Assembly: GCA_965204345.1 (NCBI GenBank)
Contig: OZ241981.1
Coordinates: 1,408,001 to 1,472,000, forward strand
DNA from: Nitrosopumilus sp.
Lineage (GTDB): Archaea > Thermoproteota > Nitrososphaeria > Nitrososphaerales > Nitrosopumilaceae
Direction: 5' to 3'
Length of the DNA: 64,000 nt
Below are positions 906 to 32,074 of the stretch, one piece after another (positions within the stretch are counted from its first letter, which is position 1; the number at the start of each line of letters is the position of its first letter). The notes beneath the pieces are model-generated. The model saw nothing but the letters and a program-made list of their open reading frames with translations, searched no databases and was not told the origin of the DNA. A program made the position numbers and the translations under genes.

Positions 906-906
906 A

Positions 907-1638: not shown

Positions 1639-2769
1639 TGTATTATATGAAAATCATATCCGCTAGTCATTCATGTCTGCCTCCATCCATTTTTGGTTGC
1701 TTTTTCTGATCGCATCAGGAACCTTTTTGGCCTTAAATGCCATCAGAGGCACCTGGCAGTTCTCTATGTCCAGAGAAAAATGCAGTCTATCCTTATTGTA
1801 AAAATCGATGAACTCCCCCATCGTCTTAAAGTGTACAATCTCATCCTCAAGTGTCCTGAAGAATCTCTCAATCTTGCCGTTGGCCTGCGGGTGGTGGTGG
1901 TGGTGGTGGTGGTGGGAGCGTGAGTCAATCAGGGCAATACTCCTCTCCAGAGCTTCTTCCTCAAACATGGTGAGCCTCTATCCCTTGGCAGGTATACCGC
2001 GGTTTCGGGATGTGAACTGGGCGCCGTTGTCTGAAAGTATCTGGCCTGGCGTGCCAAATGACTTGATAGTCTTGCGCAAAACGGCTACAGTGTTCTGGCT
2101 TGTGGCACTATCAAATATCCCGAATCCCGTTATGCATCTTGATGCATCATCCAGATATGCCACAAGTTGCAATCCTTTTAGGCGTGGATCCTTCATTTTG
2201 GCCAGTCCATATCCCACATTGCATTGGAATACAGTCACTCGTATCTGACGTACTTTCTCTTCTTGGATTTTTCAGGAGACAGCTTAACTAGTCCATTGGA
2301 TTTCATTATTTGGTAATGCTGTATGGTATCTTATATGAGATGACTTTCTGAGGTGGCGAGCTGTGTGCACTACTGCATGAATATCATCATATGTCTTAAG
2401 AACACGACGTTTAAGTGGTGACGGCATCGTCTAGGGCTTCGAGCCTGCATGAATATCATCATATGTCTTAAGAACACGACGTACATCCTCAGGTGATGGT
2501 ATCTTTCTGGGTCTTTCTGCCTTTCTGTGGGGGAGTATTCTTCCGGTCTTGCGGTAGGCTGCCCATATGCGTCTGACGTGTCTTGCGCTGACCTGCATGG
2601 TCTGGGCCAGAACAGATGCTGCACCTGTGCCCTTTTGATGCTGCCGTATGATGTATCTAATCTGAACTTCTTTTAGTCTGGTTCTCTTCATTATTCGTGA
2701 TCTGTATATGCGGTAATAATCCCTTGCCTGAAGCCTGAGCTTAGGCGGACATAATTTTCGTACAATAGA
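1639..2769 (-). mobile_element. IS481-family element copy 1, degraded (frameshifts, in-frame TAG, 72-bp insertion)
   Basis: HTH N-terminus, DDASR, ILSDNGAQF and HPQ.NGKIERF rve-integrase motifs in split ORFs; 25-bp imperfect IRs TGTATTATATGAAAATCATATCCGC / TCTATTGTACGAAAATTATGTCCGC. Confidence 0.9.
2373..2482. repeat. 38-bp direct repeat pair enclosing a 34-bp unique insert (inside IS copy 1; again at 5971..6080)
   Basis: CTGCATGAATATCATCATATGTCTTAAGAACACGACGT at 2373-2410 and 2445-2482; single copy and no insert in IS copies 3 and 4. Confidence 0.9.
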
Positions 2770-2847
2770 TTTGCGAAACCAGATGAAAGACTAAAAACGT
2801 TAAAACTGGATGATGATGATCCTGCTCATGCAAGAGATGTTAATTAA
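2770..2847 (+). pseudogene. 3' remnant of a gene truncated by the IS end
   Basis: Open frame FAKPDERLKTLKLDDDDPAHARDVN* starts immediately at the IS terminus, with no start codon. Confidence 0.5.
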
Positions 2848-2877
2848 TATGAAGTATTTTCAGCAGTACTAACACAC

Positions 2878-3894
2878 ATGATTGTTGGTAGATCACCACT
2901 AAGAATCAGTTTTGCAGGGGGAGGAACTGATCTTGAAGAATATTACAAAAGATATACAGGTCATACCATTAGTTTCACAATCAGCAAAAATACACATGTC
3001 GTCATACAAAAAAGAGAGGATGAAAAATTCCAGGGATTTTCTCCAGATTTTCAAACGCATCATCCCCCAGAAAAATATTCAAAAGTAAGGAAAAATCTTC
3101 AGGGTCATGAAATAATCATAGCAGTTTTAAAGGAATTAAACGTTACAAAAGGAATAAACGCATTTTTTTGCAGTGATGTAAACGCGGGTTCAGGGCTAGG
3201 TGCATCATCATCACTTGCAACAAATTTAGTTAATACCGTACTTTTTATGGAAGAGCAAAAATGGACAAAAAAGAGAATTGCAGAGAAGGCATATGAGATA
3301 GCACATAATGTTTTAAAATGGAACTTGGGAAAACAAGATGAGTTTTCTTCATCTTATGGTGGATTGAATCTCTTTGAATTTACTAAAGATAATGTCAAGA
3401 CTGAAAGACTTTTGTTGAACAAATCTACCTTCAGAGAGATTCAAGATAATTCGTTGTTGTTTTCATTAGAAAGAAAGCGACAGCCCTCTAGCACGATCTT
3501 AAAAGACCAAGCAGAAAAAACTAAGAAGAATGATCCCCGTACAATAAATGCCCTGCACAATACAAATCAATTTGCTTTAGAATTGCGGGACTGCTTAAAA
3601 AGAAACGATCTAACGGCTTTTAGTGAAATACTTAGAAAAGGATGGGATGAAAAAAAGAAATTCGCACGCCAGATTACAGATAAGTCAATTGATGATGTGG
3701 TTAAACGTGCAACGACCCTAGGAGTTCAAGGAATGAAAATTACGGGGGCAGGTGGGGGCGGGCACATCTTTGCATATGCAGATTCAGGCAAACATAAAAA
3801 AATTATCTCCAATCTAGAAAAAATAGGTATAAAACATATACCATTTCATTATACATTCTCTGGAACAGTTGCTTTTAATACAAGTTTTTTATAG
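2878..3894 (+). CDS. hddA: D-glycero-alpha-D-manno-heptose-7-phosphate kinase-like GHMP kinase
   Basis: RSPLRISFAGGGTD, GSGLGASS, GKQD, GAGGGG motifs; adjacent to gmhA/gmhB. Confidence 0.85.
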   Translation: MIVGRSPLRISFAGGGTDLEEYYKRYTGHTISFTISKNTHVVIQKREDEKFQGFSPDFQTHHPPEKYSKVRKNLQGHEIIIAVLKELNVTKGINAFFCSDVNAGSGLGASSSLATNLVNTVLFMEEQKWTKKRIAEKAYEIAHNVLKWNLGKQDEFSSSYGGLNLFEFTKDNVKTERLLLNKSTFREIQDNSLLFSLERKRQPSSTILKDQAEKTKKNDPRTINALHNTNQFALELRDCLKRNDLTAFSEILRKGWDEKKKFARQITDKSIDDVVKRATTLGVQGMKITGAGGGGHIFAYADSGKHKKIISNLEKIGIKHIPFHYTFSGTVAFNTSFL

Positions 3895-3915
3895 ATTTTT
3901 TTGGTGAGGTAAGAT

Positions 3916-4503
3916 ATGAATGACATCGTAAAGGATTATTTAATTCATCAAGAAGAATGTCTTGAAAAAATAAAGACAGATTTTTTTTCAGACAAAATTA
4001 AGAAAATTTTTGGGATTTTGATTAACGCACGTGATAATGGCAATCGCGTGTTTGTTATGGGCAATGGCGGAAGTGCATCTACAGCATCTCACTTTGTTGC
4101 GGATTTATTAAAAACAAGTATTGTGAAAAATTCGAAAAGATTTCAAGCGTTATCTTTGTCAGATAATATTCCAGTCATGTTGGCATGGGCAAATGATTTT
4201 TCTTACGATGACATATTTGTAGGACAGTTAGAAAATTTCTTGGAGGAAAAAGACATAGTGGTTGGAATTAGCAGCAGTGGAAATTCAAACAACGTAATCA
4301 GAGCAGCCAAATATGCAAACGACAAAGGTGCGCACTGTATTGCATTGACAGGCAAAGATGGAGGCAAATTATCAAATATATCTGCCACAAATTTAACAGT
4401 TCCAAGTAATGACATTCTAACTATCGAGACTATGCATTTGATGACATGTCATTTATTAATCGCAATGATTAGAGAATCAGGTACGCCTTTCTACAAATAT
4501 TAA
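3916..4503 (+). CDS. gmhA: Phosphoheptose isomerase (second copy)
   Basis: Identical to 318..905. Confidence 0.9.
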   Translation: MNDIVKDYLIHQEECLEKIKTDFFSDKIKKIFGILINARDNGNRVFVMGNGGSASTASHFVADLLKTSIVKNSKRFQALSLSDNIPVMLAWANDFSYDDIFVGQLENFLEEKDIVVGISSSGNSNNVIRAAKYANDKGAHCIALTGKDGGKLSNISATNLTVPSNDILTIETMHLMTCHLLIAMIRESGTPFYKY

Positions 4504-4504
4504 A

Positions 4505-4993
4505 TTGCAAAAGAAAGCCATATTTTTAGATAGGGACGGAGTCATTAACCAAAACAGAAAAGACTACGTCAAAGAGTTATCAGAATTTGAAATATTTGAC
4601 TGGGTAGGAGAATCAGTCAAACTGTTCAAGGATGCAGGATATTTGGTGATAATAATAACAAATCAATCAGCTATAGGAAGGAGATTACTCACACATGAAG
4701 AATTAAAAAAAATACATGATTGCCTTGAGAACTATCTTAAAACATTCAAGACAAAGATTGATGCAATATATTATTGCCCACATACGCCAGAAGACAATTG
4801 TGATTGTAGAAAACCCAAGCCCGGGTTGTTGCTTGCTGCAATACAGGATTTTCAAGTTGATTTGTCAAACAGTTGGATGGTAGGAGATTCGACTGCAGAT
4901 ATCATGGCCGCAACGTCAGCTGGATGCAGATCATACATGATAAAAGAGAATTTAACATTGCTTGATATTGCAATACATATATGTAAAGGATAA
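4505..4993 (+). CDS. gmhB: Heptose bisphosphate phosphatase (second copy)
   Basis: Identical to 907..1395. Confidence 0.9.
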   Translation: MQKKAIFLDRDGVINQNRKDYVKELSEFEIFDWVGESVKLFKDAGYLVIIITNQSAIGRRLLTHEELKKIHDCLENYLKTFKTKIDAIYYCPHTPEDNCDCRKPKPGLLLAAIQDFQVDLSNSWMVGDSTADIMAATSAGCRSYMIKENLTLLDIAIHICKG

Positions 4994-5236
4994 GATTTTG
5001 AATTGTGGTTAATTAAGGACATCGTCAGACATGCAGTTACGGATAGATAAAGAGAGGAAGAAGTAAGGAGCGAGTAAATAAATCAATAAATAACGGATTG
5101 ATTGATTGTGTAAATTAATTTCCTTTATTTCAGATAAGATGGGATTATAAATTCTGGCTATAAATTAGACATCAAGTATCATCAACATATAAATTATTTT
5201 TTGTCTTTTGATTTTTTGTTCTTCTTCTTGTTCTTT

Positions 5237-6367
5237 TGTATTATATGAAAATCATATCCGCTAGTCATTCATGTCTGCCTCCATCCATTTTTGGTTGCTT
5301 TTTCTGATCGCATCAGGAACCTTTTTGGCCTTAAATGCCATCAGAGGCACCTGGCAGTTCTCTATGTCCAGAGAAAAATGCAGTCTATCCTTATTGTAAA
5401 AATCGATGAACTCCCCCATCGTCTTAAAGTGTACAATCTCATCCTCAAGTGTCCTGAAGAATCTCTCAATCTTGCCGTTGGCCTGCGGGTGGTGGTGGTG
5501 GTGGTGGTGGTGGGAGCGTGAGTCAATCAGGGCAATACTCCTCTCCAGAGCTTCTTCCTCAAACATGGTGAGCCTCTATCCCTTGGCAGGTATACCGCGG
5601 TTTCGGGATGTGAACTGGGCGCCGTTGTCTGAAAGTATCTGGCCTGGCGTGCCAAATGACTTGATAGTCTTGCGCAAAACGGCTACAGTGTTCTGGCTTG
5701 TGGCACTATCAAATATCCCGAATCCCGTTATGCATCTTGATGCATCATCCAGATATGCCACAAGTTGCAATCCTTTTAGGCGTGGATCCTTCATTTTGGC
5801 CAGTCCATATCCCACATTGCATTGGAATACAGTCACTCGTATCTGACGTACTTTCTCTTCTTGGATTTTTCAGGAGACAGCTTAACTAGTCCATTGGATT
5901 TCATTATTTGGTAATGCTGTATGGTATCTTATATGAGATGACTTTCTGAGGTGGCGAGCTGTGTGCACTACTGCATGAATATCATCATATGTCTTAAGAA
6001 CACGACGTTTAAGTGGTGACGGCATCGTCTAGGGCTTCGAGCCTGCATGAATATCATCATATGTCTTAAGAACACGACGTACATCCTCAGGTGATGGTAT
6101 CTTTCTGGGTCTTTCTGCCTTTCTGTGGGGGAGTATTCTTCCGGTCTTGCGGTAGGCTGCCCATATGCGTCTGACGTGTCTTGCGCTGACCTGCATGGTC
6201 TGGGCCAGAACAGATGCTGCACCTGTGCCCTTTTGATGCTGCCGTATGATGTATCTAATCTGAACTTCTTTTAGTCTGGTTCTCTTCATTATTCGTGATC
6301 TGTATATGCGGTAATAATCCCTTGCCTGAAGCCTGAGCTTAGGCGGACATAATTTTCGTACAATAGA
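5237..6367 (-). mobile_element. IS481-family element copy 2 (identical to copy 1), degraded
   Basis: Same split ORFs and IRs; flanked by a near-duplicated TTTGTTCTT(CTTCTT)GTTCTTT. Confidence 0.9.
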
Positions 6368-6458
6368 TTTGTTCTTGTTCTTTAAGAAAATTTAAAAGAG
6401 AAATAAATTGTATGTCTGTAACTTATAATAACAGGTATTTGTTGTGAGGCATATAAGC

Positions 6459-7700
6459 ATGAATGTTTTAATCATAGCACAATATTTCCCACCAGACGTA
6501 GGTGGTGGAATAACTAGAATAAGCAATGCAGCTAAGGCATTAAAGAACCAAGGCAACAACGTAACTGTCGTATCTGCGTTTCCACACTATCCAAAGGGAG
6601 ACATTCCAAAAAAATACAGAGGTAAGATAATTGCAAAAGAACAGATTGACGGCATAACAATATACAGAACATGTATTCCCAAATTATCTCATTCGTCTAT
6701 TTTAAAACGCATAATAATTCATCTTTCATTTTGTCTCTCATCACTGTTGGTAATGCAGAAATTTCGCGATACTGACATAATTTTTGCATCAAACCCGAGC
6801 TTTTTTGTTTCATTTCCTGCTGCTGTGTACAGTTTTTTTCTGAAAAAAAAATATATTCTTAATGTCGATGACATGTGGCCAGAAGTATGGTATGACTTGG
6901 GATATGTCAAGTCGAGGATCTTCAGAAAGATTTTAGACCATATTGCCCAAAAATCATATGACAATTCGTGTGCAGTGGTGCCACTAAGTAGGGGTTATGT
7001 AGACGTATTGGAGTCAAAATATAAGGTCAAAAGAGAAAAAATTACAGTTATTGAGCATGGCGTAGATACGGAAAAATTCAGGACTAATGAAAACAAAAGG
7101 GATGAGCAACACCAAGACGGACCAAGTGGAAGGAAAAAAATTCTAATGTATGCCGGCGCACTAGGTATCGGATATGATTTTGATACAATACTGCAGGCTG
7201 CCAAGATTTTAGAGCAGTATCCGATACAGTTCATAATCAGGGGTGAGGGAAACCTGGAGGATTATCTAAAACAGCAGGTTCAGCAGCAGAAAATTACAAA
7301 TGTCAAAATAGATACAAAATTTGTCGAATTTGAAAAATATAACGAGATACTAAACAGCGCGGATATTTTTTTATTGCCCCTAAGTCCGGTCAGGGGATTT
7401 GACTATGGATTGATTACAAAGACACTGGACTATCAAATGATTGGAAGGCCAATCTTTTGTATCTCAAAGGGGGAATCAAAACGCTATGTAAATGAGACAA
7501 AAAGTGGCATTGTAACATCATCAAGGGATCCCAAGACTGTTTCGGATTTGATTTTGAAATTGGTAAAAGACGAGAAGCTTGCAGAGGAATTGGGTCAAAA
7601 CGGAAGAAGGTACGTTCTAGAGAACCTGACAATAGAGATGATTGGCAAGCGATTGATGAAGGTGATAAACGGCTGTATGGAGGAGGAGGAAAAAAAATAA
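6459..7700 (+). CDS. Glycosyltransferase family 4 (GT-B, WcaI/WbuB-like)
   Basis: MNVLIIAQYFPPD..GG, PHYPKG, YAG.LG..YDF, ADIFLLP; ATG at 6459 aligns with the paralog start. Confidence 0.9.
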   Translation: MNVLIIAQYFPPDVGGGITRISNAAKALKNQGNNVTVVSAFPHYPKGDIPKKYRGKIIAKEQIDGITIYRTCIPKLSHSSILKRIIIHLSFCLSSLLVMQKFRDTDIIFASNPSFFVSFPAAVYSFFLKKKYILNVDDMWPEVWYDLGYVKSRIFRKILDHIAQKSYDNSCAVVPLSRGYVDVLESKYKVKREKITVIEHGVDTEKFRTNENKRDEQHQDGPSGRKKILMYAGALGIGYDFDTILQAAKILEQYPIQFIIRGEGNLEDYLKQQVQQQKITNVKIDTKFVEFEKYNEILNSADIFLLPLSPVRGFDYGLITKTLDYQMIGRPIFCISKGESKRYVNETKSGIVTSSRDPKTVSDLILKLVKDEKLAEELGQNGRRYVLENLTIEMIGKRLMKVINGCMEEEEKK

Positions 7701-7812
7701 TAGCGGGTGTTTAGATGTGAGGAATCCCAATCCAGGATTTGGATGAGATCAAGCATGGGGGGGGAGAAGGAAGAGAGACATAGAGAGAAATAATAGCGGG
7801 TGTTTAGATGTG
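7677..7812. repeat. Duplicated GT4 stop-codon region (ancestral about 37 bp) enclosing a 35-bp unique insert
   Basis: AAATAATAGCGGGTGTTTAGATGTG at 7695-7719 and 7788-7812, each preceded by ATGG plus an AG-rich run; the paralog at about 25340-25375 has one copy. Confidence 0.75.
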
Positions 7813-7861
7813 CATGTCCCAGAATGATTTTGGATTGTACAGCATTGGATGATGATGATGT

Positions 7862-7912
7862 AAATACATACACATACATACATACATAAATACATACATA
7901 CACATACACACA
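7862..7912. repeat. Imperfect (TACA)n microsatellite
   Basis: aaatacatacacatacatacatacataaatacatacatacacatacacac; shorter (TGTA)n in the inverted homolog at about 25269-25290. Confidence 0.8.
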
Positions 7913-8040
7913 AAAAAAGTTCGTGCAATCAAAATAACACCATAAACATCATTCTGCTTGGGCTTCAGACACAATGAGGAGAATGCCTTTTTTATAAAAA
8001 ATCAGGAAAGAGATATTAACTTTTGAAAATATTTTTGGAC

Positions 8041-8896
8041 ATGCGGTTTCCAGATTTCTTTATTGTCGGAGCTCCAAGGTCAGGAACTACATCACTGTAC
8101 AAGTATTTGAAACAGAATCCCAAAATATTTATGCCAAAGCGCAGAGTCGCATTATTTTTCGCCAAACATTAAACGGCAGACGAATCTGATTGTAAGTCCA
8201 ATAAAAACCGAAAAAGAATACCTGTCATTATTTGCGCACGCAAGAGAGGATCAGATAATAGGGGAAGGCAGCGTAACGTACTTTATGGACCCCGATTCCC
8301 CGGGAGCTATACATGCAAAGAATCCCAATGCCAAGATAATTATGATCTTAAGAAATCCAAATGAGAGGCTAATTTCAGATTATCTGTATCAGATAAAGTA
8401 TGCATTAGACATTCTGCCGTTTGAGGAGGTAGTCAAGGCAGGCATAAGATCATTGTCAAAAGACATACATTCAATTGTAAAAACAGGCATGTATTCTCAG
8501 CATATAGGAAATTATTACGGCAAGTTTGATAAAAAACAGATAAAAATCATAATTTTTGAGGAATTCATCAAAGATACCAAAAAAACAGTAAGGGAGGTTT
8601 TGGAATTCTTGGAGATAGACGGATTGCATGATTTTAAGGATGAAGTTTATAACAGGTACGCAGTGCCGGGGGGAAGATTGCAAAAAGCAGTAATAAAAAA
8701 CAAGACACTTTTGAAGATAGTAGTCAGAATACTCCCAACTGACAGGATAATAAAGATGGCTGAGATGTTTTTGATGAAAAAGGAAAAGCGTCCGAAAAGT
8801 TCGGAATTTGACATGTCGCAACTCAGGGAGATATTTCTGGACGAAAAGACAAAGCTGGAAATAATGCTGGGGCGCAAAATAGACTGGGAGATATGA
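8041..8896 (+). pseudogene. Sulfotransferase, frameshifted copy
   Basis: Near-identical to 24283..25140 but with a 2-bp deletion at about 8143 (CGCAGAG vs CGCAAAGAG). Confidence 0.85.
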
Positions 8897-8982
8897 TTTT
8901 TGCACAAAACAGGTAAAAAAAATACAGTCATGGGCATGATCAAAGATAAACAAAAAAATACGCATATAACCATCATCTAGAC

Positions 8983-9527
<545 letters not shown>

Positions 9528-9573
9528 TATGGCAGGACTGGAGAGACAGTCATTACATTATAATTAAATAATT

Positions 9574-11733
9574 TTGTATTTCTCTAAATTTAAGATGCTT
9601 TCAGCCGGCTTTTTTCTACGAATACCTTCCTCGTCGTCATCCCCATCCTCACGTTTTCAAGGTGTCTGTAACGAATTTTTGCTAACATATTTCCTGTTTT
9701 CGGCATACGCATTACTTTACATGGTCCTGACTGCAACCATATTAAAGATAAAAATTTTTCCAACCATCGACAGAATAACATACGTGGATGCAGTAGTCAG
9801 ATGGACGATAACTGATTCGCTGCAATACGACATGCTGTTTGCATCCATAATTTTTGCAACGGCATTGCTCTTGTCGTTTAGAAAAAAGATATCAGTTTCT
9901 TTCTCAGTCATGCTACTGGTACCGGTCATCTCTGCGTCGTTTTTTGATTTTTTTCTCGAAGTTTCTCAAATGGTTTTCATCTTCTCAATGCCGACAGCAC
10001 TCACATTATTCTTGGTTGGTTATTACTTGTCTAACTACAGCCAGAAAAAGAAGAAGAAGAGCTCATCTAGCTTGGAGAAACCAGAAGAGGTGGCAACGGG
10101 TCACAGCTTCAGGCATGCGTTGTCTGTATTTTTTTCAGTTATTCTACTAGTTGAATTGGCAGCGGCACTCAGATGGGTTCTAACGCCTGTGGTTTTGGAA
10201 TTGCCCAAAAACCACTGGAGTTGGAACATAGTGTCTTTGGAAAACAGCGTGTTTTATGTTCTGGGCCTGATGGTTCCGTCCATCTTTTTGCTTTGCATCC
10301 TGTCTTTTTTGATAAAACCGTTTGTACAAAAAATATATTCAGGCATCAGCAGCGGCGGCGGCAACAACGGCAAAGACGGCAGCGGCACTACCACTGACAC
10401 TGCCATCACGCAGCAGCAGCAGCCTCAAAGACGACGACATTCAGATGATCTTGATGGCAAAAGCCCAACTGCAAACGGCCAAAAATCATTGAAAATAACA
10501 AATTTAAAAAAATACAGCCCCGTCATCTTGCTCTCAAAAATTGATTTTGATGGCAGTACGCGAAACGTTGCCTTGATGTTGTTGCTGGCAATGATATCGT
10601 CAGTTTTGATATCATTGTTTCCATACGCAGTATCCATAGTAGATGCGGACAAGTCATTTGGCACTGACGTCAAAAACTACACTGGCTGGCTTTGGCCGAT
10701 TAATTCGGCTGCCGGCCTTGAGAGCATGCTCCGTCTGGCATTCTTTGAAATAAACGAGGGTTCCAGACCCCTGACGCTGCTTTCAATATATTTTATCTCC
10801 CATATCTCCCAGTACGAGCAGGAGATTGTTTTAAAATATTTGCCAACAGTGCTGGGTCCGCTACTAGTAGCATCCACATATTTCTTTACGAGGGCTGCCT
10901 ATCCTCAGAACAGGAAGATTGCAGTGATCACATCGGTGATCACGTCAGTATCACCGCAGATAGTAATCGGGTTTTATGCGGCATTTTACGCAAATTGGTT
11001 TGCCTTGATTTTTATTTTAATCTCCTCAACGTTTCTAATCAAGTGCGTACGAAGGCAGGATCATCATCATCATCATCACGATTTTAGAAACATGACACTG
11101 TTTGGCGGCACCCTGCTGTTGGTGTTATTTTTTCATTCGTATGCATGGAGTTATTTTATGGCAACAGTTATGCTATACCTCATATGGTCACTGGCAATAA
11201 AAAAACGCAGAAAAGAGTCGGCAAAAATTTGTATCATTTTGGTGGCAGTGACATTATCCATACTTTCAGTGGATCTGTCCAGATCATATTTTGGAAACAC
11301 ATCAGATAGTTTTGAGAAAGACTTGCTGATAGCAGATTCGTCAATTAGTTATTACGAGTTTGTAAACAGATGGGCCAACTTTAATAACACTTTTTTTGTC
11401 TTTCTTGGGGGGTTTCTGACAAATTTTATGCTGCTAGGCCTGCTATTTGTATGGACCCTGCAAACAAAGCACTCGAGTCATTCAGACAGATTCTTCCTTT
11501 CGATGTTGCTGGTATCAGTGCTGCCAATCTTATTTGGGGATTTCAACGTACAGTCCAGAATATTTTACAACATTCCGTTCCACATTCCTGCAAGCGTTAT
11601 GTTGTACAAAATATACCAGAGCAACCAGACAAGGCCATTTGGCAAAATACTGGTCGTTGTGACAATATTGTTTCAGTTCAACTATGCATTAAGGGGGATG
11701 TCAAACATGAATTTTGCATCACCGATACAATGA
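9574..11733 (+). CDS. Multi-pass membrane protein, putative GT-C-fold glycosyltransferase
   Basis: Many hydrophobic segments, G.D..Y loop motif, glycosylation context; exact start uncertain. Confidence 0.6.
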   Translation: MYFSKFKMLSAGFFLRIPSSSSSPSSRFQGVCNEFLLTYFLFSAYALLYMVLTATILKIKIFPTIDRITYVDAVVRWTITDSLQYDMLFASIIFATALLLSFRKKISVSFSVMLLVPVISASFFDFFLEVSQMVFIFSMPTALTLFLVGYYLSNYSQKKKKKSSSSLEKPEEVATGHSFRHALSVFFSVILLVELAAALRWVLTPVVLELPKNHWSWNIVSLENSVFYVLGLMVPSIFLLCILSFLIKPFVQKIYSGISSGGGNNGKDGSGTTTDTAITQQQQPQRRRHSDDLDGKSPTANGQKSLKITNLKKYSPVILLSKIDFDGSTRNVALMLLLAMISSVLISLFPYAVSIVDADKSFGTDVKNYTGWLWPINSAAGLESMLRLAFFEINEGSRPLTLLSIYFISHISQYEQEIVLKYLPTVLGPLLVASTYFFTRAAYPQNRKIAVITSVITSVSPQIVIGFYAAFYANWFALIFILISSTFLIKCVRRQDHHHHHHDFRNMTLFGGTLLLVLFFHSYAWSYFMATVMLYLIWSLAIKKRRKESAKICIILVAVTLSILSVDLSRSYFGNTSDSFEKDLLIADSSISYYEFVNRWANFNNTFFVFLGGFLTNFMLLGLLFVWTLQTKHSSHSDRFFLSMLLVSVLPILFGDFNVQSRIFYNIPFHIPASVMLYKIYQSNQTRPFGKILVVVTILFQFNYALRGMSNMNFASPIQ

Positions 11734-11812
11734 AAACCCCATGATGCAACCAGAATTATACCAGCCTCTATTTTGTCAAACATGAATTTTGCATCACCGA
11801 TACAATGAAAAC
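11699..11812. repeat. 39-bp perfect direct repeat pair enclosing a 36-bp unique insert (mirror copy at 16895..17008)
   Basis: TGTCAAACATGAATTTTGCATCACCGATACAATGAAAAC at 11699-11737 and 11774-11812. Confidence 0.9.
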
Positions 11813-11931
11813 GGCAGGACACGGGAAGAAGGCTAAAAAGACTTAAAAATGAAAAACAGGCTACGGTACTTGCTTGACAAAGTCTCAAATATCTGTCTGT
11901 TGTTGCAAAATCCTGACATCTGTGTAATGCC

Positions 11932-13005
11932 ATGGCTAAAAAAAAATCCGCCCTAATAACTGGGATAACGGGTCAGGATGGCGCCTATTTGGCAAGGTTT
12001 CTCTTGAATAAAAATTATGACGTGTACGGAACATTCAGGCGCCTCTCCACGCCGAATTTTTGGAGGCTCATATCACTGGGCATTGATGAGAGCATCAATT
12101 ATATTCCGGCAGACCTTGTGGATGTCTCATCATTAACAGAGTCGCTGAAAATTTCAAACCCCGATGAAGTGTATCATCTGGCCGCCCAAAGTTATGTAGG
12201 ATCCTCATTTGATCAGCCAATAACAAGTGGGGAATACTCTGGTTTGGCAGTTGCAAGAATCTTGGAAAGCGTGAGGAGGGCAGCAGACAAAAAGAAGATC
12301 AAGTTTTATCAAGCCTCCTCAAGTGAGCTGTATGGCAGGGTTGAGGAATCCCCCCAAAATGAGGACACCCCGTTTAGACCACAGAGTCCGTACGCCGCAG
12401 CAAAGCTGTACGGTTACTGGATAACAAAAATGTACCGTGACGGCTATGACATGTTTGCCTCAAATGGAATACTGTTTAATCACGAATCCCCGTTGAGGGG
12501 ACTGGAGTTTGTCACAAGAAAGATTACAAATGCCGTTGCAAAAATCAAGCTGGGATTGCAGAAGAGACTGGTACTTGGAAACCTGGATGCATCAAGGGAT
12601 TGGGGATATGCGCCTGAATACGTCGAATGCATGTGGAGAATAATGCAGCAAAAAAATCCGGATGACTATGTCATTTCTACCAATGAGGCCCATACGGTAA
12701 GAGAGTTTGTGGAGCTGGCCTTCTCACATGTTGATTTGAAATGGGAAAAATACGTAAAATCAGATGATCGGTTTTATAGGATTCTTGAGGTAGATACGCT
12801 AAGGGGGGATTCATCCAAAGCCAAGAGGGAGCTTAGGTGGAGGCCAAAAACCAGGTTTGAGGATTTGGTTAAAATCATGGTAAATGCGGACATTCAGAGA
12901 TGGGAACGCTGGCAGAAAGGCAAGACATTTTCATGGGATGCAATTAATTATATCGACGAAAAGAAGACGCTTTTTAGGACAAGAAAGACAAGCGTGCATT
13001 CGTAA
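11932..13005 (+). CDS. gmd: GDP-mannose 4,6-dehydratase
   Basis: ALITGITGQDGAYL, HLAAQS, YQASSSELYG, SPYAAAKLY, FNHESPLRG, RDWGYA. Confidence 0.93.
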   Translation: MAKKKSALITGITGQDGAYLARFLLNKNYDVYGTFRRLSTPNFWRLISLGIDESINYIPADLVDVSSLTESLKISNPDEVYHLAAQSYVGSSFDQPITSGEYSGLAVARILESVRRAADKKKIKFYQASSSELYGRVEESPQNEDTPFRPQSPYAAAKLYGYWITKMYRDGYDMFASNGILFNHESPLRGLEFVTRKITNAVAKIKLGLQKRLVLGNLDASRDWGYAPEYVECMWRIMQQKNPDDYVISTNEAHTVREFVELAFSHVDLKWEKYVKSDDRFYRILEVDTLRGDSSKAKRELRWRPKTRFEDLVKIMVNADIQRWERWQKGKTFSWDAINYIDEKKTLFRTRKTSVHS

Positions 13006-13194
13006 ATAGGTTGTCCGGCATGTAATGCCGTATGTCAGTCAGGCAATCAGCCGGCATGCATGCATGCATATAGCAGCCGGCTGGCACAGACATACTTGTG
13101 CAAATAATATCCAAGTCAGCCAGCAAGTCAGTGTGTATATATATCATACCTGTCCAAATAACATGCAAGTCAGTCATCATTCTCTTAGTGCTCC

Positions 13195-15254: not shown

Positions 15255-15512
15255 ATCACAATACTAGAACTTACAAAAATACTAATGAAACTCATGGATT
15301 TGGATTTGGAAATACTCTTTGATGTCAATCATCCTAACGGTCAACCAAGACGCTTGTTGGACATATCTAAAGCTAAAAACGAGTTTGGCTGGAAACCCCA
15401 AATAAAGTTTGAAGAGGGATTAAAAGAGCTGATTGCTTGGTATCTTAATAATCCACAAGACAAGACCAAGAGCATTGAGAAGAAAAGGATTCTTAACCCA
15501 GACTTGTCTTGA
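15255..15512 (+). pseudogene. fcl: 3' fragment of fcl at the start of the right inverted arm
   Basis: Reverse complement of 13195-13452, beginning exactly at the IS end. Confidence 0.9.
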
Positions 15513-15701
15513 GGAGCACTAAGAGAATGATGACTGACTTGCATGTTATTTGGACAGGTATGATATATATACACACTGACTTGCTGGCTGACTTGGATAT
15601 TATTTGCACAAGTATGTCTGTGCCAGCCGGCTGCTATATGCATGCATGCATGCCGGCTGATTGCCTGACTGACATACGGCATTACATGCCGGACAACCTA
15701 T

Positions 15702-19133: not shown

Positions 19134-19179
19134 AATTATTTAATTATAATGTAATGACTGTCTCTCCAGTCCTGCCATA

Positions 19180-24165
<4,986 letters not shown>

Positions 24166-24240
24166 GTCTAGATGATGGTTATATGCGTATTTTTTTTGTT
24201 TATCTTTGATCATGCCCATGACTGTATTTTTTTTACCTGT

Positions 24241-24300
24241 TTTGTGCAAAAATCATGTCTCCCAGTCTGTTTTGTGCAAAAATCATATCTCCCAGTCTAT
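24241..24300. repeat. 30-bp tandem duplication spanning the sulfotransferase stop
   Basis: TTTGTGCAAAAATCAT(G/A)TCTCCCAGTCT(G/A)T twice; single copy in the left arm. Confidence 0.85.
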
Positions 24301-25140
24301 TTTGCGCCCCAGCATTATTTCCAGCTTTGTCTTTTCGTCCAGAAATATCTCCCTGAGTTGCGACATGTCAAATTCCGAACTTTTCGGACGCTTTTCCTTT
24401 TTCATCAAAAACATCTCAGCCATCTTTATTATCCTGTCAGTTGGGAGTATTCTGACTACTATCTTCAAAAGTGTCTTGTTTTTTATTACTGCTTTTTGCA
24501 ATCTTCCCCCCGGCACTGCGTACCTGTTATAAACTTCATCCTTAAAATCATGCAATCCGTCTATCTCCAAGAATTCCAAAACCTCCCTTACTGTTTTTTT
24601 GGTATCTTTGATGAATTCCTCAAAAATTATGATTTTTATCTGTTTTTTATCAAACTTGCCGTAATAATTTCCTATATGCTGAGAATACATGCCTGTTTTT
24701 ACAATTGAATGTATGTCTTTTGACAATGATCTTATGCCTGCCTTGACTACCTCCTCAAACGGCAGAATGTCTAATGCATACTTTATCTGATACAGATAAT
24801 CTGAAATTAGCCTCTCATTTGGATTTCTTAAGATCATAATTATCTTGGCATTGGGATTCTTTGCATGTATAGCTCCCGGGGAATCGGGGTCCATAAAGTA
24901 CGTTACGCTGCCTTCCCCTATTATCTGATCCTCTCTTGCGTGCGCAAATAATGACAGGTATTCTTTTTCGGTTTTTATTGGACTTACAATCAGATTCGTC
25001 TGCCGTTTAATGTTTGGCGAAAAATAATGCGACTCTTTGCGCTTTGGCATAAATATTTTGGGATTCTGTTTCAAATACTTGTACAGTGATGTAGTTCCTG
25101 ACCTTGGAGCTCCGACAATAAAGAAATCTGGAAACCGCAT
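24283..25140 (-). CDS. PAPS-dependent sulfotransferase
   Basis: PDFFIVGAPRSGTTSLY (5'-PSB loop), KESHYF, LRNP.ER..S.Y (3'-PB). Confidence 0.9.
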   Translation of the reverse strand: MRFPDFFIVGAPRSGTTSLYKYLKQNPKIFMPKRKESHYFSPNIKRQTNLIVSPIKTEKEYLSLFAHAREDQIIGEGSVTYFMDPDSPGAIHAKNPNAKIIMILRNPNERLISDYLYQIKYALDILPFEEVVKAGIRSLSKDIHSIVKTGMYSQHIGNYYGKFDKKQIKIIIFEEFIKDTKKTVREVLEFLEIDGLHDFKDEVYNRYAVPGGRLQKAVIKNKTLLKIVVRILPTDRIIKMAEMFLMKKEKRPKSSEFDMSQLREIFLDEKTKLEIMLGRKIDWEI

Positions 25141-25357
25141 GTCCAAAAATATTTTCAAAAGTTAATATCTCTTTCCTGATTTTTTATAAAAAAGGCATTC
25201 TCCTCATTGTGTCTGAAGCCCAAACAGAATGATGTTTATGGTGTTATTTTGATTGCACGAATTTTTTTTGTATGTATGTATGTATGTATTTAAATCATCA
25301 TCCAATGCTGTACAATCCAAAATCATTCTAGGACATGCAGTATCTAAACACTCACTA

Positions 25358-26593
25358 TTATTTCTCTCTCTCCATACAGCTGTTTATCACCTTCATCAAT
25401 CGCTTGCCAATCATCTCTATTGTTAGGTTCTCTAGAACGTACCTTCTTCCGTTTTGACCCAATTCCTCTGCAAGCTTCTCGTCTTTTACCAATTTCAAAA
25501 TCAAATCCGAAACAGTCTTGGGATCCCTTGATGATGTTACAATGCCGCTTTTTGTCCTGTTTACATAGCGTTTTGATTCCCCCTTTGAGATACAAAAGAT
25601 TGGCCTTCCAATCATTTGATAGTCCAATGTCTTTGTAATCAATTCATAGTCAAATCCCCTGACCGGACTTAGGGGCAATAAAAAAATATCCGCGCTGTTT
25701 AGTATCTCGTTATACTTTTCAAATTCGACAAATTTTGTATCTATTTTGACATTTGTAATTTTCTGCTGCTGAACCTGCTGTTTTAGATAATCCTCCCTGT
25801 CTCCCTCGCCCCTGATTATGAACTGTATCGGATACTGCTCTAAAATCTTGGCAGCCTGCAGTATTGTATCAAAATCATATCCGATACTTAGTGCGCCGGC
25901 ATACATTAGAATTTTTTTCCTTCCACTTGGTCCGTCTTGGTGTTGCTCATCCCTTTTGTTTTCATTAGTCCTGAATTTTTCCGTATCTACGCCATGCTCA
26001 ATAACTGTAATTTTTTCTCTTTTGATCTTATATTTTGACTCCAATACGTCTACAGAACCTTCACTTAGTGGCACCACTGCACACGAATTGTCATATGATT
26101 TTTGGGCAATATGGTCTAAAATCTTTCTGAAGATCCTCGACTTGACATATCCCAAGTCATACCATACTTCTGGCCACATGTCATCGACATTACGAATATA
26201 TTTTTTTTTCAGAAAAAAACTGTACACTGCAGCAGGAAATGAAACAAAAAAGCTCGGGTTTGATGCAAAAATTATGTCAGTATCGCGAAATTTCTGCATT
26301 ACCAACAGTGATGAGAGACAAAATGAAAGATGAATTATTACGCGTTTTAAAATGGACGAAAAAGCTAACTTGGGAACCCATGTTCTGTATATTGTCATGC
26401 CGTCAATCTGTTCTTTTGCAACTAGCTTGCCCCTGTATTTTTTTGGAATGTCCCCCTTTGGATAGTGTGGAAACGCAGATACGACAGTTACGTTGTTGCC
26501 TTGGTTCTTTAATGCCTTAGCTGCATTGTGTGCTCTAGTCGATCCGCCGCCTATGTCTGGCCAGAACAGCTGTGCTATGATTAAAACATTCAT
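25358..26593 (-). CDS. Glycosyltransferase family 4, paralog of 6459..7700
   Basis: Long identical stretches with patches of substitutions. Confidence 0.9.
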   Translation of the reverse strand: MNVLIIAQLFWPDIGGGSTRAHNAAKALKNQGNNVTVVSAFPHYPKGDIPKKYRGKLVAKEQIDGMTIYRTWVPKLAFSSILKRVIIHLSFCLSSLLVMQKFRDTDIIFASNPSFFVSFPAAVYSFFLKKKYIRNVDDMWPEVWYDLGYVKSRIFRKILDHIAQKSYDNSCAVVPLSEGSVDVLESKYKIKREKITVIEHGVDTEKFRTNENKRDEQHQDGPSGRKKILMYAGALSIGYDFDTILQAAKILEQYPIQFIIRGEGDREDYLKQQVQQQKITNVKIDTKFVEFEKYNEILNSADIFLLPLSPVRGFDYELITKTLDYQMIGRPIFCISKGESKRYVNRTKSGIVTSSRDPKTVSDLILKLVKDEKLAEELGQNGRRYVLENLTIEMIGKRLMKVINSCMEREK

Positions 26594-26816
26594 GCTTATG
26601 CGCTAAAAAAATCATTATATATACATTATAAGTTGCAGACATACATTGCAACTTGCTTCTTCCTTAAATTTTCTTAAGGAAGAAAAACAAAAAGTCAAAA
26701 GACAAAAATGATTTATGTGCATGATGCTCAACCTCTAACTAAAAAATTAACAATCCTATGTCATGTCATTTTAAATAAAGGCAGCTAGTTTGCACCGTCT
26801 ATTGTTTACTTACTTC

Positions 26817-29312: not shown

Positions 29313-29354
29313 GTACAAAGAAAAAGTAAATAAACAAGAAAATTTTAGAATCTG

Positions 29355-31976
29355 TTGTTTCTTGTTAGTGGGATAGCACTTGTTTTGTTGGTATTATGTG
29401 CGTTGCCATCAATTGTATTTGCCGAAAATCTTCATGATTTTTATGTTTTCGAGTCTGACAGTGAGAATAAATGTACGTGGGATTCAGAGTCTAGTTTTTT
29501 GGACAAATCTCTGAATATGAATAGTGATGATGATGATGATGATAGCGATTTTACCTATAGTTATTTTTCCAGCAGTGATGCCACAGAAACAGCAGTTCTT
29601 GAGTGCCGTTTTTCCAAGCCTGTGGATCTGTCTACGGGCCAAGGATTACGATTTTGGATGAATCTTGAAAATGTGGCTGGAATAAATAAAAGTACTCCTG
29701 AAGCATGGAGGGCTAATGCATTTTTGATCATGGTTGATGCAAATGATATACAGCGTCTTTTTTGGAATTTGCCACAGTGGTTTGGTTTAGAAGATGGCAC
29801 TTGGGCAAAAGTTATTGTAGATCCCTCCAATTACGTTCAAAATAAACCTGGCTTTGATCCTGGCAATGTCAAGTCTCTTAGAATTACATTTGTAAACGGA
29901 GGGGACTCTTATTCCCAGACCACGCTCATTACAGATGCAGAGGTAGTGCCTGGATTATTTGACAGCAAAATAGGTTCAGACAGGTCGAATTTTAAAAACG
30001 AGATACTGACATCCATGATTGTTTATTTGTCGTCTTCAGTTATTATGGGGTATTTTCTATTAAAAATTATCCGATACAAGCTGAATTTTGGATTTGTAAT
30101 TAATTTTTCCCTGTACTCTGCCTTTGGCTTGGTATTGCTGATTCTTTTGGCGATTTTTCTGGCAATGCTTCACTTTACACAGACTACTGTTCTGACAGCC
30201 TTCTTTTCGTTTATGATGGTTGGCTCTTACTTGATTTTCAGAGACAGAGCTAAAATTCTGTCTGAAATTAAAAATGAAAAAGTTCTTCCAAATCTGATTG
30301 CAGGCATACTCATAATTCTGTCACTGATTCACTTTTTTATAATTGCAGAAAATATGAGCTGGCCGCCGATTCATGATCCGCAATACCATGGTCACGCTTC
30401 GCAATTTATAATGTATCATACGAGTGTGTTTAACAATAATTGGCCATTTTTTGATTTGCCATATGGAATGACAGTTTATCCTCAGGGATTTCATGCTTTG
30501 ACTGCATTTTTTTCTTTGATTACAAACGTCATGCTGCCAATATCCCAATATGCCGTCACAGTAACAATTGTTGCACTCTTGCCGCCCATCTGTTTTTCAA
30601 TAATATACAAAAAAACCAAATCGTATTACTTGGCAAGCATTGCATTTGGAGCATTGTTTTTTATTCCAGGAAATGAAGTAGGTTATTTTATACTATTTCA
30701 TGATGTACTACTTACTCCATTAGAAGGGGGCACTTTTGTATTTGCTACATTTACTTGCATACTTTTGCTTTTTATCAGCATAGTTATTAATAATAAAAAT
30801 AATTCTAATTTTATTATTTATTCGCTATTGTCAGTTGTAATATTTATCACATATGCTGTCATGATCGTTCCCTTTGTTTTGTTTATAATTATTAAATTAA
30901 TACTCTTAAAATCCCCCATAAACTCCAAAACAAATGGACTGCGAGTCGGGAAATTTAAGATAAAAAACTATATGCTTACTTCTTTACGATTGGCGATAAT
31001 TATTTTATTAGTAACATTAGGTGCACCACTGGTTTATTTTGCAGATGAATTGATTCAGGAACATGGTGCTAGGGTCGACTTTTGGTGGATCCTTCTAGAG
31101 GATATGGACATATACAACATAGATTCTATATATTTTCCTTATTTTGTTTTATTACTAGGGGGGGTTCTTTCTGCAATTTGGTTGTTTAAATCCAATCGAG
31201 AGTTTAGTTTATTTTTGATTGTAATGTTTTCCCTAGTGTTTGGAGCAATATCAAATAAAGTAATTTATGAGAATCTTTTCTGGTTTATGTATCCTGTCAG
31301 ACTTGTTTTACTAGGAGCTATCATCTCTCAAATAGGAATAATTTTAGCAGGGGTTGATATTTTTGATAAACTTGTAACTAGGTTTAACAAACGCAAAATT
31401 TCATTACGTTCAAAATCAGTCTTCTCCATAGCGATTTGCTCGTTGGTTTTTATTGCACTAATTCCAAGTCTTGATACTCATATTTCATACGAGTATAAAG
31501 ATAATTTGCTAGGATATTTACCTACAAGCAATGAATTAAAAGTGATGGGTTGGATGAATGACAATCTTGATTCAAATACAACCATCCTTGAGGATAGAAC
31601 TAGTGAAGGAATGTGGCTTTCATCAATAAAGATATTTGATATAACTAATAACAGAGAAATGTGGAGAAAAATAAGCGCCAATGTTGTGCCAGATGATACA
31701 TTTCTAAAAGAGAGAGCATATGAGGCTAACCTTGTATTACACCATCCCGGAGACATGAAAATGATGGAAATATTGGACAAGTATGGTATTGAATATGTGT
31801 TAATTACTGGCGGTGATCCCCAAAACAGACAACAAGCGGCACGACAGCATCTTCTACCAGTATTTCCAGCTCTTCACATAAGTACTTCTGAACGAATAGC
31901 CCTCTTTGAGGATAATCCTCAATTGCAATTAGTCATTAGAGAAGGTGAAGCTGCCTTATTCAAAGTGAAAACATAG
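29355..31976 (+). CDS. Membrane protein with N-terminal carbohydrate-binding-like domain and multi-TM GT-C-like region
   Basis: Signal peptide, DLS..LRFWM..W.KV.V domain, HDP..H and YPQGFH motifs, C-terminal W...N and KYGIEYV domain. Confidence 0.65.
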   Translation: MFLVSGIALVLLVLCALPSIVFAENLHDFYVFESDSENKCTWDSESSFLDKSLNMNSDDDDDDSDFTYSYFSSSDATETAVLECRFSKPVDLSTGQGLRFWMNLENVAGINKSTPEAWRANAFLIMVDANDIQRLFWNLPQWFGLEDGTWAKVIVDPSNYVQNKPGFDPGNVKSLRITFVNGGDSYSQTTLITDAEVVPGLFDSKIGSDRSNFKNEILTSMIVYLSSSVIMGYFLLKIIRYKLNFGFVINFSLYSAFGLVLLILLAIFLAMLHFTQTTVLTAFFSFMMVGSYLIFRDRAKILSEIKNEKVLPNLIAGILIILSLIHFFIIAENMSWPPIHDPQYHGHASQFIMYHTSVFNNNWPFFDLPYGMTVYPQGFHALTAFFSLITNVMLPISQYAVTVTIVALLPPICFSIIYKKTKSYYLASIAFGALFFIPGNEVGYFILFHDVLLTPLEGGTFVFATFTCILLLFISIVINNKNNSNFIIYSLLSVVIFITYAVMIVPFVLFIIIKLILLKSPINSKTNGLRVGKFKIKNYMLTSLRLAIIILLVTLGAPLVYFADELIQEHGARVDFWWILLEDMDIYNIDSIYFPYFVLLLGGVLSAIWLFKSNREFSLFLIVMFSLVFGAISNKVIYENLFWFMYPVRLVLLGAIISQIGIILAGVDIFDKLVTRFNKRKISLRSKSVFSIAICSLVFIALIPSLDTHISYEYKDNLLGYLPTSNELKVMGWMNDNLDSNTTILEDRTSEGMWLSSIKIFDITNNREMWRKISANVVPDDTFLKERAYEANLVLHHPGDMKMMEILDKYGIEYVLITGGDPQNRQQAARQHLLPVFPALHISTSERIALFEDNPQLQLVIREGEAALFKVKT

Positions 31977-32074
31977 ACACAGCAGTAAATGAAATGTAAT
32001 GTATGATGCGTGGTCAAAATGCTCTGAAAGATTTATTCAGTGAAAACATAGACAGCAGTATGCGCTGCCAATAC

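Follow-up and report, generated by a model that had tools for sequence, protein, structure and literature searches.

Off-target integration by Cas1–Cas2 is already known from experiments. In E. coli, work of Nivala, Shipman and Church from 2018 reportedly found that Cas1–Cas2 puts spacer-sized fragments at non-CRISPR sites and duplicates a repeat-length target in doing so. The weight of such events in nature is another matter; a text citing the E. coli work speaks only of "circumstantial evidence", for two other species. For Pyrococcus furiosus, an in vitro study describes off-target full-site integration by Cas1–Cas2 with attack points one repeat length apart; the sites used are similar to the repeat and to the leader end at their termini and at a few positions in between (PMC6698737). 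The Nitrosopumilus genome analysed here is a rich natural case. Its repeat–insert–repeat sites were very probably left behind when the genome's own Cas1–Cas2(–Cas4) adaptation module integrated spacers off target ("non-canonical" integration).

The window (the whole 64,000-nt stretch that was analysed) contains two exact units. Site 1, a 38+34+38 unit at 2373–2482, lies within an IS-like repeat copy and consists of a 38-nt left target copy (2373–2410), a unique 34-nt insert, or spacer (2411–2444), and a right target copy that repeats the left exactly (2445–2482). The only genome matches to the insert are three duplicated copies of the site-1 unit, and a tandem duplication of 3,598 bp has placed a second copy of the entire unit at 5971–6080. 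Its target is present as an aligned, single, un-inserted copy in IS copy 4 (32795–32832, forward strand, 0 mismatches) and in IS copy 3 (14503–14540, reverse strand, 1 mismatch). Site 3, a 39+36+39 unit at 11699–11812, is composed of a 39-nt left target copy (11699–11737), which contains the stop codon (11731–11733) of ORF 9574–11733, a 36-nt insert that was unique in the sequence scan (11738–11773) and an exact 39-nt right copy (11774–11812). For this repeat, dinucleotide-preserving shuffles give 0.00 matches expected by chance. The entire site-3 unit lies within a perfect inverted repeat of 4.1 kb, whose opposite arm bears a second, inverted copy at 16895–17008. Large perfect duplications are a feature of the window.

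The two remaining sites have decayed. Site 2 (7677–7812) spans the stop codon of a GT4 glycosyltransferase ORF (6444–7700) and retains an exact core repeat of 25 nt (7695–7719 and 7788–7812, 93 nt apart), a 35-nt insert at 7720–7754 and an expanded purine tract. This allele is ~93 nt longer than its GT4 paralog, which has the empty target where its own coding sequence ends (approximately 25340–25400, reverse strand), and it fits a ~37-nt duplication with a 35-nt insert that was later blurred by purine-tract expansion. Site 4 (31956–32060), an old unit at the end of ORF 29355–31976, has ~75 nt extra compared to at least nine paralogs and an imperfect duplication of ~29–31 nt. The preliminary description, which had seen direct duplications around short inserts at three loci, a degenerate fourth site, empty alleles for two of them within the window and inserts without matches elsewhere in the window, was confirmed, with site 2 as a decayed version of the pattern and with the inserts of sites 1 and 3 recurring in the duplicated copies of their units.

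That description had also placed the insertions in an island. A seeded whole-genome search for solitary repeat–insert–repeat units instead revealed them genome-wide, scattered along the 2.04-Mb contig and found in unique genes too. The search identified 33 distinct units with mutually unrelated repeats, 24 of them clean and 9 "relaxed". Each unit consists of two copies of a locus-specific sequence belonging to host genes or IS copies, and the inserts differ from one another in all units. In the clean units (n = 24) the target has a median length of 36.5 nt (31–42), the insert of 35 nt (30–38) and the period of 71 nt (66–75), and the two repeats are identical in 20 of the 24. When all solitary direct repeats with spacings of 20–300 nt are considered (n = 82), the distribution is sharply peaked, as the claim of a length-measuring integrase would have it: 29 fall at 70–74 nt, compared to 3 at 65–69, 5 at 75–79, 1 at 60–64 and 1 at 80–84 nt. 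The units do not constitute a bona fide CRISPR array, a reading that was rejected since no single conserved repeat is common to the loci. Several ambiguous units were kept out of the clean set, namely C1:250576 and C1:253451 (44+35 and 42+32 with 5 mismatches), C7:8002 (62+36) and the collagen-like-repeat units C1:518900 and C1:519476. Multi-spacer neo-arrays were also considered and rejected, as the repeats 147 nt apart at C1:1605049 and C1:48986 look, by eye, like coding repeats. Coding tandem repeats are abundant in the genome.

The genome encodes one integrase of the expected kind. The search for Cas1, which the preliminary description had proposed as a check, returned a single match (230 bits), and this cas1 lies outside the window, in agreement with the earlier statement that the window contains no cas gene. 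The cas4, cas2 and cas1 genes adjoin a native CRISPR array of six decayed repeats (C1:1886280–1886667), with periods of 72, 68, 70, 72 and 72 nt and a conserved repeat core of 34 nt, which is ~2 nt below the median duplicated target. Elsewhere in the genome the native repeat occurs as one degenerate solo copy. The cas1 gene is itself split by a 72-nt unit into ORFs of 167 and 151 residues. Searches of the genome, which is 99.7% complete, gave 0 matches for the effectors RAMP, DevR/Cas7, Cas5 (Cas5d) and Cas6 and, for cas3, a cas3_core match below the cut-off only; a complete type I-B CRISPR-Cas system was rejected on this basis.

The geometry of the units equals the spacing of the native array and that of the 36–37-nt repeat/35-nt spacer arrays of the relatives with the closest Cas1. 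In the arrays beside these Cas1 proteins (G086, G014, G082 and G076) the repeats measure 36–37 nt and the commonest spacer length is 35 nt. Two such units are present in the 800 kb sampled from G082, which harbors an intact type I-B system, and no clean units were found in 400 kb each of the Cas1-less genomes G018 and G002, where one 37+43 unit and one doubtful 30+42 unit were seen, respectively.

The targets show a bias at their ends. Ten of the 24 clean units have targets that begin with CT on one strand (null mean 2.65) and five have CT|CT at the target end (null 0.18); none of 5000 random sets attained either count, in a test that used the same data in which the motif had been noticed. In the native array the leader meets the first repeat as GGCT|CTGAAT, a junction that the target ends resemble (CT|CT). 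The orientation-optimised information content of the targets is 7.0 bits, compared to 4.93 ± 0.40 in 60 nulls. Over their whole length the targets are only weakly similar to the native repeat (mean 13.7 versus 13.2 matches, p = 0.04), and the idea that they look like it was rejected for the full length, where it is barely above random, and retained for the ends.

These data bear on whether a different integrase was responsible: a casposase-type Cas1, a tyrosine integrase near the array or a Cas1–Cas2 acting in trans from a lost plasmid or virus. A 563-residue ORF of the phage-integrase family is located ~2 kb from the native array, Cas1 homologues with open frames of up to about 410–450 residues, which we take to be putatively casposase-like, are encoded by other species of the genus, and the resident cas1 is broken. 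However, the genome contains a single Cas1 match, and the resident array accounts well for the geometry of the units and for the motif at their ends. Tyrosine recombinases are not known to generate 36-bp target duplications, and casposons duplicate about 14–15 bp and have genes as their cargo in place of 35-nt inserts. A trans-acting Cas1–Cas2 of the same type would amount to the same mechanism. We therefore regard another integrase as improbable.

The inserts provide a further line of evidence on origin. Four of the 33 have near-full-length matches in genes located far from them on the organism's own genome, namely NFACT (34/36), trpA (33/34), UPF0182 (30/30 plus flanks) and a short ORF (30/32), and one spacer of the native array matches the chromosome over 37 nt. 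In the genome scan no insert source was found for the other 29 units; apart from the source matches and duplicated copies of the same unit, the inserts are absent elsewhere in the genome. The site-3 insert has one match of another kind, to a 5,428-nt contig in run X3 that is present at about one tenth of the host depth and is counted as foreign; the match covers 11738–11774 alone, with one letter different. Exact scans, which are blind to single mismatches, detected the inserts of sites 1, 2 and 3 in none of the viral contigs and those of sites 1 and 3 in none of the metagenome contigs. The site-3 insert also had no blastn match in phage records and, allowing up to 3 mismatches, none in 150 other genomes of the genus. 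The view that the inserts are foreign DNA was not borne out, as those traced so far are mostly self-derived. Nor was the anticipated shared PAM seen: no common flank is present beside the 4–5 known protospacers in either orientation, in what is a small sample from a genome that encodes Cas4.

Direct repeats around an insert could also arise with no CRISPR link, through ordinary tandem duplication or through slippage during replication, with filler DNA from template switching or end-joining repair. Some decayed units, namely sites 2 and 4 together with the nine relaxed ones, have the short exact repeats and longer inserts that this process might produce, and the richness of the genome in coding tandem repeats points the same way. 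Yet neither the sharp peak at 70–74 nt nor the agreement of the 36/35 split with CRISPR geometry is explained by slippage, and the target ends carry the native leader-repeat motif. The inserts, moreover, are not copies of adjacent DNA; the one exception is the relaxed unit C1:253451, whose "insert" is found again 2.9 kb away, next to a paralogous unit, and which was treated as ambiguous. We consider slippage very improbable, and the earlier proposal that a Cas1-type integrase wrote repeatedly into this genome gains support from the presence of Cas1, the sharp length peak and the non-adjacent inserts.

The units are insertions, as un-inserted single-copy target alleles exist. Relatives are too distant at the DNA level (a search for the empty allele of a helicase unit in 30 relatives gave short, chance-level matches only), and therefore paralogs, protein-level comparison and public runs were used to find empty alleles. 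Of 31 distinct units, 12 have a paralog with a spanning empty allele, those of site 1, site 2, a subtilase unit and one paralog pair having been inspected directly; the remaining units lack a paralog for such a comparison. One unit is missing from nine paralogs, the four listed being 99.8–100% identical, and the Cas1 of relatives is contiguous where this genome's cas1 carries 72 extra nt. Site 3, the sole site compared across runs, is polymorphic. Four studies have public runs that contain the stretch; contigs from three of them (2010, 2019 and 2024) include the unit, and in one run of the fourth study, X7, a contig joins 11698 to 11774, an exact 75-nt skip that corresponds to the empty allele. 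For the read support sought, the evidence thus consists of assembled contigs, rather than raw reads, at site 3. An assembly or sequencing artefact, which might be suspected because many units lie in repeated DNA, where assemblies err, and because the window has perfect large duplications, is very improbable given the site-3 unit in contigs from three studies, the precise empty allele in a fourth study's run, the spread of units over the 2.04-Mb contig, unique genes included, and inserts that are all different.

We infer that Cas1–Cas2 catalysed the off-target insertions, in an order of events that may have been as follows. The integrase would capture a ~35-bp prespacer, with traceable sources mostly in its own chromosome, and attack the two strands of a non-CRISPR target ~36 bp apart; gap repair would then duplicate 36 bp to yield target–insert–target. 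Site choice would be loose, with a preference for targets whose ends resemble the native repeat and its leader junction (CT|CT...). No interference genes were found, and therefore self-derived spacers would not be lethal. Selection presumably purges harmful hits, so that survivors would be those in non-coding or dead DNA, those spanning stop codons and those in frame in tolerant proteins. The period is divisible by 3 in 7 of 7 distinct units within continuous long ORFs, compared to 9 of 24 other units, and in-frame insertions of 22–25 residues are found in a subtilase, a restriction-system SNF2-type helicase and a D12 DNA methyltransferase. One unit duplicates a tRNA end. The earlier suggestion that insertions survive only where harmless hence stands for stop codons and dead DNA and falls short elsewhere, as units also lie in frame inside intact genes and one broke cas1. 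That hit, which split cas1 itself, probably ended the process; as cas1 is now broken, integration activity must be past.

We lean, with some reserve, towards a broader reading in which, in this lineage (the runs are labelled sponge metagenome), an adaptation module that had lost its interference partner acted as a chronic endogenous mutagen, placing 70–75-bp units chromosome-wide, inserting in frame into proteins, duplicating a tRNA end, seeding potential new arrays and finally inactivating its own cas1. On this reading, the similar units in G082, whose system is intact, point to off-target writing as a regular cost of natural CRISPR adaptation that has so far gone uncounted. With dozens of clean, partly polymorphic events, this one genome offers a natural data set for the sites that Cas1–Cas2 chooses without a leader, reveals what selection tolerates and indicates that adaptation is able to mutate proteins in frame and wreck its own gene. 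The peak of solitary direct repeats at the native repeat plus spacer length is a cheap genome-wide signature, which could be used across prokaryotes to quantify both the burden that CRISPR adaptation places on genomes and the emergence of new arrays.

Among known systems, casposons likewise employ a Cas1-family integrase that makes target-site duplications. They are several kb long, carry genes and make short duplications; a casposon was rejected here, where inserts are 30–38 nt and duplications 31–42 nt. Self-targeting spacers in CRISPR arrays are likewise copied from the host chromosome, whereas most of the inserts described here lie outside any array, in a genome where no interference machinery was found. 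A complete related system is the type I-B of same-genus relatives such as G082, which encodes cas7/Csh2, cas5, cas3, cas6, cas1, cas2 and cas4 beside a 55-repeat array. Its Cas1 shares 63–67% identity (tblastx pieces) with that of this genome, the cas1-cas2-cas4-array order is common to both, the period is equal and the repeats are related, ending in GATTGAAAC. By contrast, this genome is without the effector genes searched for and has six decayed repeats and a split cas1. The P. furiosus reactions used plasmids in vitro and showed a 30-bp spacing with a G/C preference (PMC6698737), while the events described here are natural and chromosomal, their attack points lie ~36 bp apart and one end is biased towards CT|CT. 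The neo-CRISPR events of E. coli are likewise reported to be repeat–spacer–repeat units whose "repeat" is unrelated to the array, seen there under Cas1–Cas2 over-production with supplied oligonucleotides and here as 24–33 fixed natural events. Unlike in E. coli, the module is type I-B-like, proteins have received in-frame insertions, cas1 itself has been hit and a population polymorphism is among the events.

Four solitary scars in the window, each a target duplicated directly around a short insert (hereafter units, described as target + insert lengths, the period being their sum), were named in the preliminary description, and re-reading of the four loci together with a repeat search bore them out as described. 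Site 1 is a 38-nt exact direct repeat (2373-2410 and 2445-2482) around a 34-nt insert and site 3 a 39-nt exact repeat (11699-11737 and 11774-11812) around a 36-nt insert; the site 3 repeat has no comparable match in shuffled sequence. Site 2 (7677-7812) has an exact core of only 25 nt and ~93 extra nt relative to its paralog, which, judged from the sequence, would read best as a ~37-nt duplication with a 35-nt insert followed by purine-tract expansion. Site 4 (31956-32060), imperfect and longer by ~75 nt than the corresponding stretch of at least nine paralogs, is an old unit. The un-inserted alleles that had been claimed for two of the sites were likewise found in the window, each with a single target copy: the empty site 1 target lies in IS copy 3 (14503-14540, minus strand) and IS copy 4 (32795-32832), and the site 2 target stands at the end of the paralogous GT4 gene. 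Second copies of the site 1 unit (5971-6080, within a 3,598-bp tandem duplication) and of the site 3 unit (16895-17008, inverted, inside a 4.1-kb perfect inverted repeat) exist solely because these larger duplications carry them.

The 3,598-bp segment, which encodes SIS-domain, HAD-hydrolase and GHMP-kinase proteins and contains an IS-like copy, forms a 100% identical tandem over window positions 1-7200 and upstream (contig C1 positions 1406775, 1410373 and 1413971), so that the site 1 unit occurs three times in the genome; the tandem may reflect recent amplification, or assembly collapse or expansion. The inverted duplication (6453-13453 and 15254-26599) is of a cluster of sugar-nucleotide and glycosyltransferase genes on both sides of an IS-like copy, its arms being 100% identical over 4.1 kb with further blocks at 95-100%. 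The window also contains perfect long coding tandem repeats at 20303-22659 (495 nt x 4.8, inside a 1,689-aa ORF), 48869-49627 (57 nt x 13.3) and 63088-63672 (150 nt x 3.9), and coding repeats of 309-312 nt are numerous genome-wide.

We extended the analysis to the whole assembly (2.12 Mb, completeness 99.7%; the window is C1:1408001-1472000 of this genome, G000) with a seeded scan for direct repeats spaced 20-300 nt, keeping solitary pairs with no further repeat nearby. The genome-wide distribution is sharply peaked: 29 of the 82 solitary pairs have a spacing of 70-74 nt, compared to three at 65-69 nt, five at 75-79 nt and one each at 60-64 and 80-84 nt. The remaining pairs fall mostly at 145-154, 230-244 and 300 nt and were taken for coding repeats. 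After copies in segmental duplications were collapsed and two units 110 nt apart, lost to the neighbor filter, were re-added, 33 distinct units remained. The 24 clean units (target 31-42 nt, insert 30-39 nt, no more than two mismatches) have a median target of 36.5 nt, a median insert of 35 nt and a median period of 71 nt (66-75), and both target copies are identical in 20 of them. Nine further units have the period of the clean set but a shorter exact repeat, and at least two of these (C1:1400070 and C1:301804) extend to targets of ~36-40 nt when one mismatch or one 1-nt indel is tolerated. No two units have repeats that are alike.

Comparison of in silico un-inserted versions of the units with the genome, with part of the junctions viewed directly, revealed junction-spanning paralogs with a single target copy for 12 of the 31 distinct units. 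The unit at C1:1400070 is absent from nine paralogs, the four of these that were listed being 99.8-100% identical over 428 nt, and that at C1:162808, in a subtilase gene, is absent from nine paralogs with up to 94% identity; in the protein search the two halves of the subtilase query overlap by 36 nt in every paralog. One pair of paralogous genes carries a unit each, ~45 nt apart, and each gene is empty at the site of its partner. Site 3 has no paralog, and its stretch was found in public metagenome runs from four studies: contigs of runs X1, X3 and X10 carry the unit, and a 2,508-nt contig of run X7, otherwise without differences, joins 11698 to 11774, skipping exactly 75 nt, with 39 nt that fit on either side of the junction. 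By its sequence the X7 contig is taken to be a natural-population empty allele of site 3; an exact repeat-to-repeat deletion would give the same sequence.

The preliminary description had proposed a Cas1-type integrase as the source of the scars, and cas1, cas2 and cas4 are all present in the genome, outside the window, together with a native array. The single Cas1 match of the genome (C1:1887727-1888668) is adjoined by cas2 (119 aa) and cas4 (195 aa), and the array (C1:1886280-1886667) consists of six decayed repeats with periods of 72, 68, 70, 72 and 72 nt. The native repeat has a 34-nt conserved core, the minus-strand end of which is GATTGAAAC; the duplicated targets of the units are ~2 nt longer than this core. 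A genome search for interference genes gave no match for RAMP, DevR/Cas7, Cas5 or Cas6 and only below-cut-off matches for Cas3. The cas1 gene itself is interrupted by a 38 + 34 + 38 unit (C1:1888134-1888243) that contains two in-frame TAA codons and leaves ORFs of 167 and 151 aa; with the 72-nt unit excised, the frame is again open over 1,011 nt, and the Cas1 genes of relatives are uninterrupted at this position. Within the array, the unit at C1:1886549-1886660 has a target duplication shifted by ~12 nt relative to the repeat, indicating off-register integration inside the native array: the duplicated 35-40 nt comprise part of the repeat and ~12 nt of the neighboring spacer, leaving the fifth repeat "truncated", and the insert, a native spacer, copies 37 chromosomal nt at C1:1209425. 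A degenerate solo CRISPR repeat lies near the array (C1:1884791), and beyond the array is a 563-aa ORF of the phage-integrase family (L002:10556-12247, C1:1882556-1884247). The adaptation module may be carried on an integrated element.

Compared along their full length, the targets barely exceed random DNA in similarity to the native repeat. Their ends are non-random. Orienting 21 units by expectation-maximization yielded 7.0 bits, compared to 4.93 ± 0.40 for 60 random sets (maximum 6.0). CT stands at the target start on one strand in 10 of 24 units (random mean 2.65), C or G followed by T in 15 of 24 (4.79), and CT|CT spans the junction in 5 of 24 (0.18), each count being reached by none of 5,000 random sets; because the same units served both to find the motif and to test it, these effect sizes are optimistic. 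The native leader-repeat junction is GGCT|CTGAAT, and the match of the motif to it is independent of that bias.

For all inserts, blastn against the genome gave no sign of templating from adjacent DNA, an origin that the preliminary description had named as an alternative. Four inserts have near-full-length matches at distant loci, the source genes being assigned with Pfam: C1:330574 (34/36, an NFACT gene), C1:1385280 (33/34, trpA), C1:1947301 (30/30, with a further 4 and 5 flanking nt that run into the repeats, a UPF0182 gene) and C1:500922 (30/32, a short ORF). The inserts at C1:330574, 500922 and 1385280 differ from their sources (C1:1275229, 964067 and 174508, respectively) at six positions, all transitions, five of which are C>T or G>A from genome to insert and four of which would alter the protein encoded by the source; the duplicated targets of these three units show no differences in 111 nt. 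The insert/source differences may stem from a diverged donor strain or from a damaged prespacer. Run X3 includes a 5,428-nt contig, covered at about a tenth of the host depth, that matches the site 3 insert alone (11738-11774, one other letter) and likely holds the site 3 protospacer on another replicon or in another organism. Exact scans gave no match in viral contigs for the inserts of sites 1, 2 and 3 and none in metagenome contigs for those of sites 1 and 3, the site 3 insert has no match in phage records and is absent from 150 genomes of the genus, and no PAM is apparent beside the four to five protospacers compared.

Selection on the units is visible. Of the seven distinct units lying within an uninterrupted long ORF, all have periods that are multiples of three, compared to 9 of 24 among the other units. 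The in-frame units lengthen their proteins, which include a subtilase-domain protein, an SNF2-like helicase beside a methyltransferase, a D12 DNA methyltransferase and several of unknown family, by 22-25 residues. Other surviving units lie across stop codons (sites 2 and 3) or in IS copies (site 1). Two units 110 nt apart occupy C1:486267-486486 (stretch L055), the second duplicating the 3'-terminal 23 nt of a tRNA-Ser(CGA) gene and 15 nt downstream such that the tRNA gene remains whole.

Cas1 is present in 43 of 101 sampled genomes of the genus. Its homologues fall into open-frame size classes of ~330-340, ~410-450 and ~557-578 aa, with three to nine matches in several genomes; the longer homologues may, we presume, be casposases and Cas4-Cas1 fusions. 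The Cas1 proteins closest to that of G000 belong to four relatives, one of which, G082, carries a complete type I-B operon (Csh2-type cas7, cas5, cas3, cas6, cas1, cas2 and cas4). As an indication rather than a test, given small samples and related genomes, the first 800 kb of G000 (cas1 split), cut like the G082 sample, contain 12 solitary pairs at 70-74 nt, 800 kb of G082 (intact type I-B) three, namely one true CRISPR-repeat pair and two units, and 400 kb each of two relatives with no Cas1, G018 and G002, none (one 37 + 43 at 80 nt) and one doubtful 30 + 42, respectively. The two G082 units (L059:1661 and L075:1767) have unrelated targets and measure 37 + 36 and 36 + 35. G082 also has a two-repeat mini-array (L058:3914) whose repeat resembles that of the relative G086.

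Off-target integration by the genome's own Cas1-Cas2(-Cas4) module, which is type I-B-like, is the best explanation of the units, whereby a spacer-sized fragment would be inserted with a repeat-length stagger and the gaps then repaired. Slippage with filler DNA and the action of another integrase fit less well, as does an assembly artefact: each fails at least one of the length peak, the CRISPR geometry, the end motif, the single Cas1 and the recovery in independent runs. For integration by the resident module, tolerance of self-derived spacers would follow from the interference genes having been lost, and the small, decayed array from the hit in cas1, the order of these two events being one that we infer.

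The solitary units of G000 share their geometry with the arrays of the four Cas1-closest relatives, in all of which 40-56 repeats, each 36-37 nt long, alternate with spacers most often of 35 nt, at periods of 70-73 nt. Because a limited literature search gave no earlier account of a natural genome with such units scattered through it, or of a cas1 broken by one, we file G000 as a new and unusually rich natural case of the already known off-target integration. Such integration was reportedly observed in E. coli with over-produced Cas1-Cas2 by Nivala et al. in 2018, and a text citing that work describes the natural evidence in two other species as circumstantial. In vitro, Cas1-Cas2 of Pyrococcus furiosus also inserts DNA into non-CRISPR sites whose attack points are separated by one repeat length and whose ends resemble the repeat (PMC6698737).
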